Shown here piece by piece: positions 26,820 through 32,263 of a stretch of DNA of 64,000 bases. The notes below the pieces were generated by a model. It saw only the letters and a list, made by a program, of their open reading frames with translations. It did no database searches and had not been told where the DNA came from. The stretch is from Candidatus Aenigmatarchaeota archaeon (lineage in GTDB: Archaea > Aenigmatarchaeota > Aenigmatarchaeia > Aenigmatarchaeales > Aenigmatarchaeaceae). The stretch is taken from the NCBI GenBank assembly GCA_043814985.1, contig JBDRJK010000019.1, positions 1 through 64,000 of the forward strand, read 5' to 3'. Each line of letters begins with the position of its first letter. Within the stretch, counting starts at the first letter, position 1. The position numbers and the translations under genes are program-made.

Positions 26820-27203
26820 ATGAAGAAGGCTCTTAAGATAAGGAACCTTAGATGGTTTTTTATTGGATTCGGGACAGCATTCGTTCTGTTATCCTTCTTA
26901 GTGAGTTTCTACACTTTGAAAGTCATTGTGCCTAGCCAGATAAACTCTGCAGCTTCGTTCGCGGAAACAGCCTGCTATTCTAACACTTGCTATGAAATGT
27001 CGAACATCACGGCAGACGAGTACTACGAAATCCAAAAATTCTGCAGGGACAAAACAGAAGAGGCTTTGGTTCTGGCAATCAAACCAGAGGGGGAAGTGTT
27101 CCTCACGCTTGTGACTAGGAACTTCAACTGGATATTGATAACAGGGATTTCTTTCTTGATAGCGGGTTTTATTGTTTTTAGAATGGAGAAAAGGCCTGTA
27201 TGA
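26820..27203 (+). CDS. Hypothetical membrane protein
   Basis: 127-aa ORF with two TM segments. Confidence 0.6.
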   Translation: MKKALKIRNLRWFFIGFGTAFVLLSFLVSFYTLKVIVPSQINSAASFAETACYSNTCYEMSNITADEYYEIQKFCRDKTEEALVLAIKPEGEVFLTLVTRNFNWILITGISFLIAGFIVFRMEKRPV

Positions 27204-27238
27204 AGCTTCTACATATGAGTTTCAAGCCAACAATAACG

Positions 27239-27246
27239 TTTAAATA
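27239..27246 (+). promoter_or_regulatory. Probable TATA box of the 23S rRNA transcription unit
   Basis: TTTAAATA upstream of the structured 23S leader. Confidence 0.5.
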
Positions 27247-27386
27247 CTTTTTAAAATTAATAACTTCTTACGTGATAACATGTTAACTTTAATTTAACAT
27301 TGGAAAACTTGCTGATTAGGCGACTAGATGAAGCTCATTCTGACAACACTACAGTTGTCATCCAATCCATACTATCAAGTGTGGAT

Positions 27387-27453
27387 GCCATGTGACTTAA
27401 GAAACTAATTTTGAGCCCGCAAGGCTATGAGAAACCCAGGGGTAAATGATGGC
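27387..27453 (+). ncRNA. Box C/D-like guide RNA 1 in the pre-23S leader
   Basis: Terminal stem GCCA/TGGC; degenerate C box; D' TTGA at 27411; GCC-CGCAA-GGC hairpin; C' ATGAGAA; D ATGA at 27446. Guides are complementary to 23S 30111-30117 and 30125-30135. Confidence 0.55.
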
Positions 27454-27529
27454 GCGCTGTTATTAAATTGACAGCGTTTTAATAGTGAGATAAGATGCTC
27501 ATCGCAAAGCAATTTTTGCGGTGTAAGGG

Positions 27530-27602
27530 TAAAGAAGACGATGAATTGTTTGAACACCTATTGATGCGCAAGCAGATGAGAAATACGTCGAACGAGTCTT
27601 TA
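27530..27602 (+). ncRNA. Box C/D guide RNA 2 in the pre-23S leader; predicted to guide Um2552 (E. coli numbering)
   Basis: Stem TAAAGA/TCTTTA; C ACGATGA 27538-27544; guide TGAACACCT 27551-27559 pairs with AGGTGTTCA 30237-30245; D' TTGA 27561; TGC-GCAA-GCA hairpin; C'; D ACGA 27592. Confidence 0.7.
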
Positions 27603-30285
27603 GATCATCATGATCAATGATACCAGCAGAGGCAGAAGGTAGGGTCTGAGCAGTAATGCCAATAGGTGGATAGCTCAGTTCTCGAGATTGATGAAGATCC
27701 TAGCAAGCTGGGATAAGCTCGGGCTAGGCGCAAGCAGCCTTTGAACCCGAGATAGTTGAATGCGACATCGCACTGGTTTCGGCCAGTGATTCGAAAGAAT
27801 CAAGAACCCGCTGAACTGAAGCATCTTAGTAAGCGGAGGAGGAGAAAGCAAACGCGATTCCGTTATTAACGGCGAGTGAAAACGGAACAGAGCAAACCGA
27901 ATTGCTGCAGAAATGCAGTTTAGATGTGGTGCCTGGTACAGCTTAGCTGGTTGACTCGAAGTCGCCTGGAATGGCGCACTATAAACTGTGATAGTCAGGT
28001 AGAGGAAGACCGGAAAGTTGATTCAGGAAAAGACTACCATTTCTTGGATATGAAGTGGGAATACGGCTGGCATCAACAGCCAACTCTAAATATTTCGAGA
28101 GTCTGATAGCGGATAAGTAAGGTAACTGAAAGCTGAAAAGTATTCTTAACAGAAGATGAAAAGATCTTGAAACCTATTGGTTATAGTCATCTATGGTCTG
28201 AAAGGTGCTCTTGTGAAGGAAAGTTGAGTGATCAACATATACGAGCAGGAGCTTACAGGATTATAGAATCCGTTTTGAAACACGGAGCAGGGAGTTTGTC
28301 TTTGTGGCGAGCATAATTGCTTCAAGCAAGTATGCATAGCGAAAGCGAAAAGTGCGTAGCGCAAGCATGGCACTGGGTCTGAAAGGGCCTGCAGTCACAG
28401 GGGCAAGACCAGAAAGCACTTGATCTAACCCATGTCAGGATGAAGCGTAGCGAAAGCTGCGTGGAGGTCCGAACCATTGTTGAGCTGCAAATCACTAGGA
28501 TGAGCAGGGGTTAGGGGTGAAAAGCCAAACGAACGTGCTGATAGCTGGTTCCTTCCGAAATATGTCTTAGCATAGCCTTGTCTGAGATAGCTAAAAGGGT
28601 AAAGCACTGATTGAGGAGTCAAGGGAAGAAATTCCCAACTTCCCTGTCAAACTAATAATCTATTAGCGTCGTAGAAGACAGGAGTGCGGGTGCTGGGGTA
28701 AGCCCGGTATCCGAAAAGGGAACAACCTAGACTAAGGTTAAGGTCCCTAATTCTTAGCTAATTCACAAAGTTTGTCCCAGTCCTAAAACAGGAGGGGCGT
28801 AGGCTTAGAAGTTGCCATCGCATAATCAACGTGTAATAACGGACCTCTCTAGGTCTGGGGCGGCGAAAATGGATGGGAGTAAGTTAAGAACCGATACCTT
28901 AGATTGCGAAAGCAATAGTATAGGAAGGCGTTCTGCTTGGGTAGAAGCATCTGCGTAAGCAGGTGTGGACCGGGCAGAATTGAAAATCCTGCTGGGAGTA
29001 GCAGCAAAGAAAGGTTAGAATCCTTTCCACCTGAAGGATCAGGTTTTCACGACAACATTTATTGGTCGTGAGTTAGTCAGTCCTAACCCCACCCTTAACT
29101 GACGTGGGGGAAGGTAAACATGTTAATATTCATGTACCACGGGCATACGTGTGGCAACACAAGCTCGGCTGTAGACGCTTTAGGATATGCTGACGTAAGT
29201 TAAGCAGTTAAAACCAGGGAGTTCCGTCAAGGAGAGAACTGGTCGAATCTGTGAACAGCTCTGCTGTATAGCGGAGTTCAGCAAATTCCAAGAGCCCATG
29301 AAAATATAGCCGGGAAGGATTGTTCGTGTCTGTACTGAGAACCGATACAGGTATCCTTGCTGAGAAGGTAATGGTGTGTCGAGTGATCCCAATTTAGGGA
29401 ATTGGGCAAATTAGAGTCGTATGTTTGCTAGAAGACTTGCCTATGCAGAAGTGCATAGGTTGCAATAACAAGGAGGAAGCGACTGTTTAACAAAAACATA
29501 GCTGACTGCTAAGGAGAAATCCCTTGTATAGTCGGTGAGGCCTGCCCAGTGCGAGTGTGTCAAAGCTGGTTTCAACCGGCCTAAGCCCTCGTCAACGGCG
29601 GCGGTAACTCTGACCGTCTTAAGGTAGCGTAATCCCTTGTCGATTAAATGTCGACCTGCATGAATGGCTTAACGACTTCCTCACTGTCCCAAATTGGGGC
29701 TCGGCGAAACTGCTATTGTGGTGCATAGGCCACAGACCCTCAGGGGGAAGAGAAGACCCCGTGGATCTTTGCGGTAGCCTGTCGTTGTTGTATGGTTACA
29801 ATTGCATAGCGTAGGTAGTAGTTGTTATGTTAGAGCTTTCGGGCTCTAAATAGACGACAATGTAACACTGCCCTTTTGTAAACATGTAACTAACCCCAAA
29901 ATTTTGGGGAACACCGATTGGTAGACCGCTTGGCTGGGGCGGTACACTCTTGACAAAATATCAAGAGTGCCCAAAGTGATCCTCATCTCCGTCAGAAATG
30001 GAGAGTAGAGTGTAAGCGTAAAAGGATCATTTATTGGATTCAACATAGCAATGAATCCAATTGTGAAAGCATGGGCTAACGAGATGCCGAGCGTTCTTGA
30101 TGGATATCGGTAGTTTCAGAAAAGTTACCCCGGGGATAATGGAGTCGTGGCGGGTGAGAGCTCACATCGACCCCGCGCGTTGCTTCATCGCTGTCGGCTT
30201 CCCCTCTCCTGGCCGTGCAGTAGCGGCCAAGGGTACAGGTGTTCACTGGTTAAAAGGGGACATTAGCTGGGTTCAGTACGTCGTG

Positions 30286-30521
30286 ATCTGATATGGGTTT
30301 ATCTCTTCTCTTTGTATAGCATGATTAGCTTTAGCAATAGCTAGCGATGAAATCATGTGATCGAGTATGGATTAGGGCGATGACTGCACCGCCCCCTTTA
30401 GAATATCTATATATGATAGATAATTCGGGTGTAACTTATGAGCCAATTTTCAATCGATGCTGTGATGAATTGACATTAACTGTCTTGATGAACAGCAAAG
30501 ATTTTCCATATCAGACGACAA
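30286..30521 (+). other. Archaeal BHB-type intron in 23S rRNA helix 93 loop (after E. coli G2597)
   Basis: GTCG-TGA-TCTGATATGG ... CCATATCAGA-CGAC-AAA. Cleavage after the second nucleotide of each bulge restores the conserved GTCGTG|AGACAG. Confidence 0.9.
30371..30447 (+). ncRNA. Intron-encoded box C/D guide RNA; predicted to guide Gm2251
   Basis: C GCGATGA 30377-30383; guide ACCGCCCC 30388-30395 pairs with GGGGCGGT 29936-29943; D' TAGA 30399; C' TAGATAA 30417; second guide 30424-30437; D ATGA 30438. Confidence 0.65.
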
Positions 30522-30889
30522 AGACAGTACGGTCTCTAACTACTGAGGGTGTTATTACCTGACTCTAAGGAAGAATGAGTACGAAAGGAACGTTCTTCCG
30601 TGGCCTCTGGTTAACCGGTTATCTTTTGGTAACGCCGGGTAGCTACGCCATAGCTTTTAACAGCTGAAAGCATCTAAGCTGGAAATTGCCGGGAAAAATA
30701 GGTAATTGGCACAGATAGACTATCTGTTTAATGGGACAGGGATGTAAGCACGAAGCTTCGGCGACGTGTTCAGTTCACTGTTTCCAAGCCTTTTAGCTCA
30801 GACCCCTTTAATTGCCTCTGCTGGTAAAATCTCATTGGTTTTACCGCTTAGCGTTAGCTATATAAAGCTTTAGTTTTAACTATTAGGAA

Positions 30890-31360
30890 GTGATAAATAT
30901 GACAACTGAAGCAATATTAGTTAGCGAAGAAGGTTTGGGAATTTCAGAAAAGGCACTTTTTAATTGTAATGCATCATATCAAAGTGAATTGAACAATGCT
31001 AGTTCTTGTGCTCAAGAAGGAAAGATAGAAGGAGCCACATATCATTTGGTCAAAGCTCAATCTTATGCTCAAAAAATGCTTCTGAATGTTCCTGAAGAAA
31101 AAGGTAAAAAAAATATAACAGATGCCTTTGAAAATGCGTTTAGTAAGACCCTGGATGTTGCAGAAAACCTGAAAGTCGATGATATCGCACTCTTAGGAAG
31201 AACAATGGATGAAATGGCTTATTTAGCTAAAAACTTTCCAGGAAATAAATTAAGAAAACTCGCATTGATTAGGAAAGTTGAGGACACTGATAAAAAATTA
31301 AGCACAGAGTATAAGAAATACGTTTCAGAAGTTAGCAAGATTGTAGAAGGCTCTAAGTAA
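30890..31360 (+). CDS. Hypothetical alpha-helical protein
   Basis: 156-aa ORF preceded by a TATA-like element; no recognised motif. Confidence 0.6.
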   Translation: MINMTTEAILVSEEGLGISEKALFNCNASYQSELNNASSCAQEGKIEGATYHLVKAQSYAQKMLLNVPEEKGKKNITDAFENAFSKTLDVAENLKVDDIALLGRTMDEMAYLAKNFPGNKLRKLALIRKVEDTDKKLSTEYKKYVSEVSKIVEGSK

Positions 31361-31995: not shown

Positions 31996-32263
31996 GTGGG
32001 CTGGGTAGACAGCTGCCCCTGTTAAGGGAGGAAATTCCATCCACCATTAGCCTCAAAGGCTTGCCGTCCCTCGGGATTAGGCTGAAAAGCTTAGGTGTCC
32101 AATAGGGCTTCATGTTCGACTTGGACGATGCTGGCAAGGTGCAAGACCAAACAGCTCTGATGACGAAAGAGGAGCGGGTAGGTTGCATCAGACGAATGCT
32201 GTCAAGCAGGAGTGATTGTTTTTACAGGATCTGCTCACAGAAGATGGATTATGCCCAGGCCAC
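31996..32263 (+). ncRNA. rnpB: RNase P RNA
   Basis: GAGGAAATTCCATC (32028-32041) and ACAGAAGATGGATTAT (32237-32252) form the P4 pseudoknot; P1 is GTGGGCTGGGTA/TGCCCAGGCCAC; T-run follows. Confidence 0.9.

Follow-up and report, generated by a model that had tools for sequence, protein, structure and literature searches.

Putative box C/D guide modules in the leader and intron of an aenigmatarchaeal 23S rRNA precursor

The 23S transcription unit and its helix 93 intron

The window, i.e. the whole 64,000-nt stretch of contig JBDRJK010000019.1 to which all positions refer, carries a 23S rRNA gene that matches the full Rfam model LSU_rRNA_archaea at 2416.3 bits and is divided into two exons by an insertion in the loop of helix 93. 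The elements of this transcription unit are as follows.

27239-27246, + strand: archaeal TATA-type promoter box of the 23S transcription unit
27623-27651, + strand: 5' strand of the pre-23S processing stem with its bulge-helix-bulge (outer helix 27623-34, central helix 27635-38, bulge 27639-41, inner helix 27642-51)
27642-30805, + strand: 23S rRNA gene (exons 27642-30285 and 30522-30805)
30280-30296, + strand: 5' half of the intron bulge-helix-bulge (central helix 30280-83, bulge 30284-86 with the cut after 30285, inner helix 30287-96)
30286-30521, + strand: bulge-helix-bulge intron of 236 nt in the loop of helix 93
30506-30522, + strand: 3' half of the intron bulge-helix-bulge (inner helix 30506-15, central helix 30516-19, bulge 30520-22 with the cut after 30521)
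30796-30824, + strand: 3' strand of the pre-23S processing stem (inner helix 30796-805, central helix 30806-09, bulge 30810-12, outer helix 30813-24; cut after 30811)

The promoter box forms an invariant block in 8 of the 8 aligned leaders, and transcription of the 23S unit probably starts about 25 nt downstream of it. The processing stem was delineated from the predicted fold and an RNA junction, and the intron from an RNA joint. The RNA evidence consists of assembled contigs of three public RNA runs (X3, X8 and X9); these are blind to small RNAs, transcript ends and modification, leave positions 27230-27595 uncovered and give low cover inside the intron. A junction of 30811 to 27641, corresponding to a circular pre-23S, is present in run X3 (depth 858.7) and in two contigs of run X9. 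Two contigs of run X9 also join 30285 to 30522 and thereby omit exactly 236 bases, the shorter side of the match being 42 letters. This intron-skipping joint was seen in one of the three RNA runs, its absence from X3 and X8 being an uninterpretable gap, and a contig of the DNA run X1 spans the intron and does not contain the spliced joint. At both the splice and the circle junction, the joined ends lie where cleavage behind the second base of the 3-nt bulges would place them. Neither a leader-trailer ligation junction nor, at the low cover of the intron, a back-joined junction of intron ends (a circular intron) was found among the RNA contigs, and neither absence can be interpreted.

The intron motif comprises a 4-bp central helix (30280-83/30516-19) between 3-nt bulges on opposite strands, and the predicted cuts coincide with the RNA joint. 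Its outer helix is weak, so that the motif is of the relaxed type. The splicing endonuclease EndA is encoded in this genome by one ORF of 185 aa, whose catalytic domain scores 97.6 bits. No homing endonuclease gene was found in the intron, where the ORF scan gave mechanical ORFs only.

An insertion is found at the same spot of helix 93 in 19 of the 20 related loci. This wide occurrence at a hairpin-loop site tolerant of expansion, along with the preservation of the helix 93 stem in the minimum-energy fold, where the exon strands pair as in mature helix 93 and not as the central helix of the bulge-helix-bulge, would suit an expansion segment that stays in the mature ribosome, with the C/D-like motifs of the leader as chance look-alikes. 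We regard this reading as barely credible. The RNA contigs omit exactly 30286-30521, and the expansion-segment reading of the insertion was rejected on account of this joint between 30285 and 30522; for the stems described below, the covariation statistics rule out chance. The P-loop has an established role, with which an internal segment that pairs with it in a working ribosome would be incompatible.

C/D-like modules of the leader and the intron

At least three C/D-like units had been proposed for this locus in the earlier note, two in the leader and one or more in the intron. We identified four such modules, as well as two further structured elements.

27311-27345, + strand: leader element L-A (D'-like box, short tetraloop hairpin, C'-like box, second D-like box 8 nt on)
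27386-27454, + strand: leader module L-B (5' stem 27386-90, box C 27392-98, 12-nt spacer 27399-410, D' 27411-14, hairpin 27415-26, C' 27427-33, 12-nt spacer 27434-45, D 27446-49, 3' stem 27450-54)
27534-27601, + strand: leader module L-C, putative A-loop guide (5' stem 27534-39, box C 27541-47, 13-nt spacer 27548-60 with guide core 27551-59, D' 27561-64, hairpin 27565-75, C' 27576-82, 9-nt spacer 27583-91, D 27592-95, 3' stem 27596-601)
30312-30370, + strand: intron domain I-1, a hairpin (stem 30320-26/30351-57, apical stem 30325-29/30340-44)
30376-30444, + strand: intron module I-2, putative P-loop guide plus a second guide (stem 30376-78, box C 30380-86, 12-nt spacer 30387-98, D' 30399-402, loop 30403-12, C' 30413-19, 18-nt spacer 30420-37, D 30438-41, stem 30442-44)
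30459-30496, + strand: intron module I-3, putative single guide (stem 30459-63, box C 30465-71, 16-nt spacer 30472-87, D 30488-91, stem 30492-96)

The boundaries given earlier correspond to module and intron ends: the 5' stem of L-B starts at 27386/27387 and the intron ends at 30521. In all four modules, a linker of 1 nt separates the 5' side of the terminal stem from the box C core, and the box D core abuts the 3' stem. L-B, L-C and I-2, but not I-3, also have internal D' and C' boxes flanking a small hairpin or loop. The boxes are degenerate, the consensus being kept only at positions 1-4 of box C and at the last two positions of box D (G-A). Spacer lengths are 12/12 nt in L-B, 13/9 nt in L-C, 12/18 nt in I-2 and 16 nt in I-3, as compared with a consensus of about 12 nt.

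L-B and L-C were also picked up by a pattern scan, independently in the case of L-B. The loose C/D pattern matched 7 sites genome-wide as opposed to 3, 7 and 3 sites in shuffled genomes, and is unusable as a census of sRNAs. An Rfam search of 27200-31000 with E values of up to 10 returned three noise hits only in the leader and the intron. For annotation, this means that Rfam misses these modules, whose boxes are so reduced that standard snoRNA finders would miss them as well.

The modules are supported by covariation. Among relatives, 95-98% of the cells in their terminal stems are paired, as opposed to 13-54% in slid controls. The terminal stem of I-2 is 97.3% paired, with double changes at 5 of 5 pairs (16 sequences; slid controls, 13.3-53.1%). 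In L-C, whose internal hairpin covaries as well, 95.3% of cells are paired and double changes occur at 9 of 10 pairs (15 sequences); none of 500 shuffles scored as high, and slid controls reached 27.4-44.0%. The stem and hairpin of L-B are 98.1% paired, with three double changes among seven sequences. The I-3 module recurs with different stem letters in the introns of loci L016, L017 and L019 and in the leader of L025, so that its five loci show four versions of the stem, with the register identical in four of the five. The invariant columns of the alignments are the box cores and the guide cores.

The remaining two elements were rejected as guide modules. L-A is the most conserved block of the leader by BLAST and in the alignment. 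The distance between L-A and a conserved stretch upstream varies, and L-A is therefore not a ruler-type guide; in view of this and of its 8-nt spacer we left it as an element that is probably K-turn-like. I-1, which was recognized by eye and in the predicted fold and is kept in most related introns, has a box C-like core in its asymmetric loop (30345-50) and lacks a box D at its 3' end; it was likewise left as a K-turn-like element, and its role as a K-turn or an L7Ae site would be a guess.

Predicted guide-target pairings and their conservation

Four spacers pair with the following segments of the 23S rRNA, N+5 being the nucleotide that faces the fifth spacer base upstream of D or D'.

29936-29943, + strand: predicted target of the I-2 D' guide (P-loop), 8 Watson-Crick pairs with 30388-30395; N+5 = G29937
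30122-30128, + strand: predicted target of the I-2 D guide, 7 pairs; N+5 = U30126
30237-30245, + strand: predicted target of the L-C D' guide (A-loop), 9 Watson-Crick pairs with 27551-27559; N+5 = U30240
30522-30528, + strand: predicted target of the I-3 guide on the 3' strand of helix 93, 7 bp and 2 wobble pairs; N+5 = A30524

The two best matches reported earlier, with the fifth base of the guide on G29937 and U30240, were reproduced. Going by rRNA landmarks, we take these nucleotides to be E. coli positions 2251 (P-loop) and 2552 (A-loop), respectively, both presumably sites of 2'-O-methylation almost everywhere.

Within this one sequence, the length of the matches is not above chance. Complementary 8-mers between leader or intron and the rRNAs were about as frequent as in shuffles (27 vs 22.4 and 18 vs 15.8), and raw counts of 8-mer and 9-mer complementarity to 16S and 23S rRNA were rejected as evidence because their shuffled expectation is equal. 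Guide shuffles equalled the observed match length in 85 of 1000 cases for the 9-mer, in 344 of 1000 for the 8-mer and in more than 500 of 1000 for each of the other five guides. The position of the matches speaks for the guides, N+5 having landed on 29937 or 30240 in just 1 of 7000 guide shuffles. The five or six guide segments that had been claimed do not rise above the shuffle level on this sequence alone; four guides (L-C D', I-2 D', I-2 D and I-3 D), however, are raised above chance by the comparison with relatives. Published screens, according to a passage of PMC6009581, usually require at least 9 continuous pairs, a length that only the L-C D' guide attains. Every sequence seen has a Watson-Crick pair at N+5 for the three best guides.

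The I-2 D guide and its target vary together in 17 of 17 loci: one letter type occurs only in the four loci that have the matching change in the target (the present locus, L016 and L010, all of one genus, and L021 from another family), and the other type occurs in the remaining 13. The variable base of the P-loop guide pairs in both of its forms. Between this order and others, changes are seen in the D guide of L-C as well as in its 23S target; a perfect 8-mer complement is found in 5 of 6 loci from other orders and in 3 of 11 loci of this order. In the present genome this guide has decayed, its 9-nt spacer falling below the usual rule and its complement being lost. The core of the A-loop guide of L-C, on the other hand, was found in 14 of 16 leaders, and the leader location of this module is maintained across several orders. 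Conservation in related genomes, on which the earlier note had made its proposal depend, was therefore borne out in that stems covary, boxes and guide cores are invariant, and guides and targets change together.

The guides of L-B are less clear. The best match of its D guide, 7 bp at 30125-30131, is ambiguous: the D guide of the relatives, which is one base longer, can form 9 bp with the 5' strand of helix 74, whereas that of the present genome fits 30125-30131 better than the helix 74 site. The match at 30125-30131 overlaps the I-2 D target (30122-30128), so that the two could not bind simultaneously. The D' guide of L-B is not conserved, and the comparison with relatives revealed no conserved target for it.

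Within the order, the P-loop module lies in the intron in 14 of 18 loci, in the leader in three and in the trailer in one; the search had given 21 hits, of which three matched the 23S P-loop itself in antisense and were excluded. In other orders none of 14 loci has a 23S gene within 1.5 kb of the module, which is thus free-standing there. These free-standing copies have the textbook 12/12 layout, with the D' core exactly 12 nt past box C in 13 of 13; within the order, the G-A of D' is missing at the expected place in 5 of 16 modules that retain the guide. On this distribution, the modules are independent units. The introns of loci L009 and L020 persist without the P-loop guide, which therefore is not the sole reason for intron retention.

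These observations bear on the idea that the modules are merely K-turn sites for protein, landing pads for L7Ae that serve the processing or stability of the precursor, and that their complementarity to 23S rRNA has no function. The idea gains something from the K-turn-like L-A and I-1, which have no usable spacers and share the leader and the intron with the modules, and from the chance-level length of the matches. It leaves unexplained the invariant spacer cores, the joint change of guides and targets and the retention of the guide pair in free-standing copies distant from rRNA genes, and we judge it to be quite improbable.

Machinery, proposed function and known systems

The genome encodes the proteins that a C/D guide requires: fibrillarin (265.9 bits), Nop5 (166.2 bits) and L7Ae (60.2 bits) all exceed the Pfam cut-offs, and the Nop5 gene adjoins that of fibrillarin on contig C5. 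In the same genome, which is 91% complete, no SpoU-family methyltransferase was found, and FtsJ-like enzymes were represented by marginal matches only, the best of them at 23.7 bits as against a cut-off of 24.1. The central claim of the earlier note, that the 23S precursor carries its own box C/D guides in leader and intron, is thus upheld by covariation, free-standing homologues, the encoded machinery and the removal of the intron. In our view, the discarded parts of the pre-23S rRNA probably host four box C/D guides for methylation of 23S rRNA by L7Ae, Nop5 and fibrillarin.

In the proposed mechanism, the box C and box D cores of each module would form a K-turn for L7Ae, after which L7Ae, Nop5 and fibrillarin would assemble on the module and the spacers would pair with domain V of the 23S rRNA. 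Fibrillarin would then methylate the 2'-OH of the nucleotide at N+5, i.e. G29937 (I-2 D'), U30240 (L-C D'), U30126 (I-2 D) and probably A30524 (I-3). Cleavage of both bulge-helix-bulge motifs by the splicing endonuclease would produce the circular pre-23S and free the leader, the intron being removed later, so that each transcript would supply one set of guides. RNP assembly and methylation are what we infer for the modules, and the guides may act before or after their release, that is, in cis or in trans, and may serve as folding chaperones as well.

Some eukaryotic box C/D snoRNAs serve as folding chaperones. The modules might do nothing else, binding L7Ae (and perhaps Nop5 and fibrillarin) and holding strands of the P-loop, the A-loop, helix 74 and helix 93 open during the assembly of domain V, with no methylation. 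All supported targets lie in or beside the peptidyl transferase centre, and those at 30122-30128 and 30522-30528 are helix strands that must later pair elsewhere. The five in-order P-loop modules that keep the guide without the D' core would also fit such a role, as would the conserved guide-target pairings mismatched at N+5 that are described in a section of PMC6009581 favouring a chaperone function. Against an exclusive role of this kind, the N+5 pair of the three best guides is always Watson-Crick, and the register of guide and box is fixed at 12 nt in all 13 free-standing copies, a constraint that mere pairing does not need. Moreover, the two main targets are generally regarded as near-universal 2'-O-methylation sites, with sRNA-guided methylation predicted at both in archaea (PMC4644070), and no stand-alone enzyme for G29937 or U30240 was found in the 91% complete genome. 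We therefore consider chaperones devoid of methylation unlikely, although still the strongest competitor; chaperone and methylation roles are mutually compatible.

A far more specific version of the guide reading, which we offer tentatively and hold to be rather doubtful as a whole, is that the guides moved into the 23S precursor in this order and act in cis and co-transcriptionally, as methylation guides and chaperones supplied one-to-one with each nascent 23S rRNA. The intron would then be retained by selection as a guide host, and no earlier rRNA intron would be known to serve the cell; the removal of leader and intron by the splicing endonuclease would be a checkpoint that frees the P-loop, the A-loop and helix 93 only after their modification.

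The closest parallel is the euryarchaeal pre-tRNA-Trp intron, described in passages of PMC7994747 (which cite Clouet d'Orval 2001 and Singh 2004) as a box C/D guide that was later reported to act in trans. Like that intron, the present one has a bulge-helix-bulge and would carry C/D guides aimed at its host RNA. Here, however, the host is 23S rRNA, the intron lies in the loop of helix 93 and contains two guide modules plus an extra structured domain, the predicted targets belong to the peptidyl transferase centre and lie as far as ~350 nt from the intron, and more modules are located in the leader. Free-standing C/D sRNAs are also known for these sites: according to the relevant part of PMC4644070, sRNA-guided methylation is predicted at the equivalents of E. 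coli 2251 and 2552 in three and five, respectively, of the archaeal species studied. The modules described here would share with those sRNAs the machinery, the N+5 rule and the target nucleotides, and homologues of the P-loop module stand free in other orders of the same class. Unlike the sRNAs of that account, the present modules are promoterless and embedded in the precursor of their putative target (leader, intron or trailer), with boxes reduced to the K-turn core.

For leader-hosted guides, the part of PMC4247193 concerned provides one partial precedent, the Tko-19 snoRNA gene upstream of the rRNA operon of Thermococcus kodakarensis, which is considered part of the 5' leader and cotranscribed with the rRNA. 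That case is a single remark on a single genome, the gene lies upstream of 16S and its target is not stated in the passage, whereas the A-loop module keeps its leader position across several orders and appears to target the downstream 23S rRNA. The rRNA introns of Thermoproteales and Desulfurococcales, as portrayed in sections of PMC3608112, resemble the present intron in their bulge-helix-bulge motifs, their location at conserved rRNA sites and their excision by the tRNA splicing endonuclease, but contain homing endonuclease genes or nothing of known function; the same sections state that whether archaeal rRNA introns yield non-coding RNAs needs more work. In the portions of the full-text literature and of context papers on archaeal C/D sRNAs that we covered, no rRNA intron with guides for its own host rRNA was found. 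Box C/D guides and bulge-helix-bulge introns are both well known, but a guide-bearing rRNA intron is, as far as we found, apparently undescribed. Eukaryotic intron-hosted snoRNAs, in the corresponding passages of PMC7994747, are similar in that spliced-out introns yield guides whose supply is tied to transcription of the host gene, and the present system would be their prokaryotic counterpart if the guides do act in cis.

If the guide reading is correct, it would provide a functional reason for an ORF-less rRNA intron inherited across an order, and would show how a 0.8-Mb genome can lack dedicated enzymes and still maintain those ribose methylations of the peptidyl transferase centre that are most conserved. 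The locus would also be a simple natural system for testing the action of a guide RNP in cis on nascent rRNA. It would further imply that sRNA genes shift among free-standing, leader, trailer and intron positions. Model R1 detects the P-loop module in 26 of the order's 42 genomes and in 66 of the 151 genomes sampled from the class, with a single copy in each.

Endonuclease motifs of the pre-23S transcription unit

The window covers bases 1-64000 of contig C19 in an 808-kb genome (21 contigs, ~40% G+C, estimated 91% complete). It encodes a full-length archaeal 23S rRNA, with the gene for RNase P RNA on the same strand ~1.2 kb downstream; the neighborhood of the related locus L043 is alike. The features of this region that are relevant here are as follows:

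27642-30805, full-length archaeal 23S rRNA (Rfam, 2416.3 bits)
31997-32262, RNase P RNA (Rfam)
27623-27651 with 30796-30824, BHB motif in the pre-23S processing stem
30280-30283 with 30516-30519, 4-bp helix of the helix 93 BHB motif, with 3-nt bulges at 30284-30286 and 30520-30522
30287-30296 with 30506-30515, 10-bp inner helix of the helix 93 BHB motif
30286-30521, predicted intron

The loop of helix 93 is the insertion site. Cleavage behind the second nucleotide in both bulges gives the predicted intron, whose removal would restore an uninterrupted helix 93, as seen in the intron-less loci L033 and L107. The corresponding 30285-30522 joint was found in one of the three public RNA runs examined, where two contigs of run X9 lack the 236 bases (42 letters on the shorter side), and one contig of the DNA run X1 traverses the intron. 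A back-joint from 30811 to 27641 is present in RNA run X3, in a contig with a depth of 858.7 and a shorter side of 60 letters, and in two contigs of X9. It is the joint of the circular pre-23S that would form when the processing-stem motif is cut and its ends are ligated. Intron and processing stem are both genuine, their two endonuclease motifs being used within one transcription unit, and the genome has one splicing-endonuclease gene. The minimum-energy fold of the intron region retains the inner helix, with the exon strands in their mature helix 93 pairing; since its outer helix is weak, the helix 93 motif is a relaxed BHB with alternative conformers.

An insertion occupies the same spot in 19 of the 20 related loci with a helix 93 flank, the single exception, L033, being an additional 23S from a bin that is 4% contaminated. 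A 23S match was found in 26 of the 41 genomes of the closest set, and many of these genes (L014, L017, L019, L022, L025, L027 and others) span 3.1-6.5 kb, so the order must contain many more insertions than the one in helix 93.

Box C/D-like modules in the leader and the intron

Four modules were delineated, two in the leader and two in the intron:

27386-27454, leader module L-B: 5-bp stem, 1-nt linker, box C, 12-nt spacer, box D', 12-nt hairpin, box C', 12-nt spacer, box D, 3' stem
27534-27601, leader module L-C: layout as in L-B, spacers of 13 and 9 nt
30376-30444, intron module I-2: spacers of 12 and 18 nt
30459-30496, intron module I-3: single-guide unit, spacer of 16 nt

Their boxes are reduced: constancy is limited to positions 1-4 of box C and to the terminal G-A of D and D'. 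A K-turn takes its bulge and its tandem G-A pairs from these positions, and, judging from sequence, all four modules appear to be of the K-turn type. A permissive Rfam scan of 27200-31000 detected no known families in the leader or the insertion. A genome-wide blind search with a pattern gave just seven matches, L-B and L-C among them; as the same pattern yielded 3, 7 and 3 matches in shuffled genomes, the scan alone is no proof.

Comparison with relatives shows that the four modules are under purifying selection. The leader could be aligned in seven of the relatives with a 23S match, and the core of the A-loop guide, carried by L-C, is present in 14 of the 16 leaders examined; the two without it are a fragment of 139 nt and L021, where a different module takes this position. 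In a 15-sequence alignment of L-C, the terminal stem and the D'/C' hairpin have 95.3% of cells paired, with double-sided changes in nine of ten pairs; none of 500 shuffles scored as high, and slid controls had 27.4-44.0% of cells paired. The corresponding values for L-B (seven sequences) are 98.1% and three double changes. Modules of the I-2 type, which carry the P-loop guide, were identified in 18 loci: in the helix 93 intron (14), in the leader (L013, L014 and L021) and ~80 nt behind the 23S (L009). Three further regular-expression matches were antisense to the P-loop and were excluded from this count. Across 16 such modules, pairing in the terminal stem reaches 97.3%, with double-sided changes in every one of its five pairs. 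Modules of the I-3 type occur in the introns of L016, L017 and L019 and in the leader of L025; their stems differ yet remain complementary, and the register between guide and box D is identical in four of five.

Search model R2, for the A-loop module, matched 20 of 151 class-sampled genomes, with one copy in each; its seven matches in other orders also lie 5' of a 23S, with a gap of ~120-190 nt as read from sequence and 23S landmarks within 6 kb from the unit onward in all seven. Model R1, for the P-loop module, found exactly one copy per matching genome. Of 42 genomes from the order 26 matched, as did 66 of 151 in the class sample and 65 of 151 in the phylum sample, all of the latter within the same class. 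A 23S lies within 1.5 kb of four of six same-order loci, as against none of 14 from other orders. In the free-standing copies, the terminal stem is long and perfect, both spacers measure 12 nt and the same two guides are present; in all 13 copies listed a D' core lies exactly 12 nt after box C. The existence of these copies in other orders indicates that the intron module belongs to an old sRNA family, which in this order moved into the 23S precursor. Family f8 (L008, L065/L066), whose helix 93 intron apparently contains an A-loop guide core and a short P-loop module without the hairpin, seems to be a further case of modules changing place.

Two other elements resemble parts of these modules. 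Conservation in the leader is highest at L-A (27311-27345), where D' and C' boxes of canonical appearance flank a 3-bp hairpin with a tetraloop and a second D-like box follows 8 nt beyond the C'-like box; it looks like a guide-less K-turn protein site. I-1 (30312-30370) is a hairpin having an asymmetric loop with a box C-like core. No other part of the helix 93 introns is as constant throughout the order, and L009 has it in duplicate; lacking a box D, it was ruled out as a guide module.

Guide-target pairing

The best pairings of the spacers with this genome's 23S through the N+5 position (the target base facing the fifth spacer base upstream of the D' or D box) were as follows:

L-C D', 9 pairs, faces U30240
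I-2 D', 8 pairs, faces G29937
I-2 D, 7 pairs, faces U30126
L-B D, 7 pairs, faces C30129
I-3 D, 7 pairs and 2 wobble pairs, spans the exon junction, faces A30524
L-B D', 7 pairs, faces A30112

From sequence context, we take 29937 to be the second G of the P-loop (E. coli 2251) and 30240 to be the A-loop's first U (E. coli 2552). The two best guides place D+5 on G29937 and U30240, just as the earlier note had it. Its own refuting condition, equally good D+5 hits from shuffled controls, comes out even when applied literally to this sequence alone. Here 8-mer complementarities are as frequent as in shuffles, and matches at least as long as the real one arise after shuffling in 85 of 1000 cases for L-C D', 344 of 1000 for I-2 D' and more than half for the others, so that count and length of matches do not distinguish the real guides. 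Their placement does: N+5 falls on 29937 or 30240 in 1 of 7000 shuffles versus two of seven real guides. These two sites were chosen after the fact; they are also the two ribose methylations that one would name in advance.

The suggestion that the precursor carries its own guides is strengthened by covariation across relatives, which shows that guide-target pairing is under selection. The 23S positions 30122-30128 occur in two letter types, one shared by this genome, L016 and L010, all from a single genus, with L021 from a different family, the other found in 13 further loci; the I-2 D guide letter matches its target in all 17, which amounts to two apparently independent compensatory events. 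The P-loop guide has a single variable base, which lies opposite a G and can pair with it in either form. The L-C D guide and its helix 69-71 target both shift in step between this order and others, with a perfect 8-mer complement in five of six other-order loci and three of 11 in this order, where several of the rest retain 6-7 bases. In this genome and in L016, the complement has been lost along with 3 nt of the spacer.

In L016, one of these two genomes with a decayed guide, and in L026, the eight bases of 23S helix 69-71 before the conserved anchor are wholly unlike those of other loci, which suggests a further intron exactly at the L-C D target. The near-identical strain of run X1 has small deletions confined to the D'-C' loop of I-2 (within 30408-30418) and single-letter differences at 27409, 27461 and 27480; the latter fall in the L-B D' spacer, which is not conserved, and in the variable hairpin that follows L-B. 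Its supported guides are unchanged.

The earlier note had also proposed that the guides explain why an ORF-less intron is retained. For the P-loop guide this cannot be the sole reason, because L009 and L020 keep the intron without it. In L020, the I-2-type module retains its stem, boxes and D guide, and the whole P-loop guide stretch is missing; R1 found no copy of the P-loop module elsewhere in that genome (G012, 64% complete).

Machinery and proposed mode of action

Archaeal C/D sRNA genes are described, in the sections of PMC7994747 consulted, as intergenic, near or cotranscribed with their neighbors, in tRNA-sRNA dicistrons, or in tRNA introns, and PMC4247193 places one snoRNA gene likely inside the rRNA operon leader of T. 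kodakarensis. The non-coding RNA output of rRNA introns is said in PMC3608112 to need more work. Nowhere in the portions of the full-text literature searched, which included these three papers and PMC6009581, PMC4644070, PMC3491384, PMC5539422 and PMC6125680, is an rRNA intron reported to carry a box C/D guide; an earlier report may exist elsewhere.

The genome encodes neighboring fibrillarin and Nop5 genes on contig C5 and L7Ae on C19, the contig of the 23S gene. No match to the SpoU family of methyltransferases was detected in this 91% complete genome, and FtsJ-like matches were marginal only (best 23.7 bits versus a cut-off of 24.1). This scarcity fits RNA-guided methylation of the P-loop and A-loop sites; protein-only enzymes are possible.

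On the proposed mechanism, the modules would recruit L7Ae, Nop5 and fibrillarin, which would then methylate the N+5 nucleotides. Modules in the leader would depart with it upon excision of circular pre-23S, and the intron modules at splicing. The targets of the intron modules lie 0 to ~580 nt away, in domain V, a proximity that would favor action in cis while the modules are still attached; to judge from the free-standing homologues, the same guides would operate in trans elsewhere. A chaperone role alongside methylation is likely, because two of the targeted stretches form strands of helix 74 and helix 93.

The 16S rRNA gene is located on a separate contig (C21:1500-3320, locus L006), unlinked from the 23S gene. 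It exceeds the Rfam model by 108 nt, its flanks are able to form a processing stem, and its leader contains several box C-like cores.
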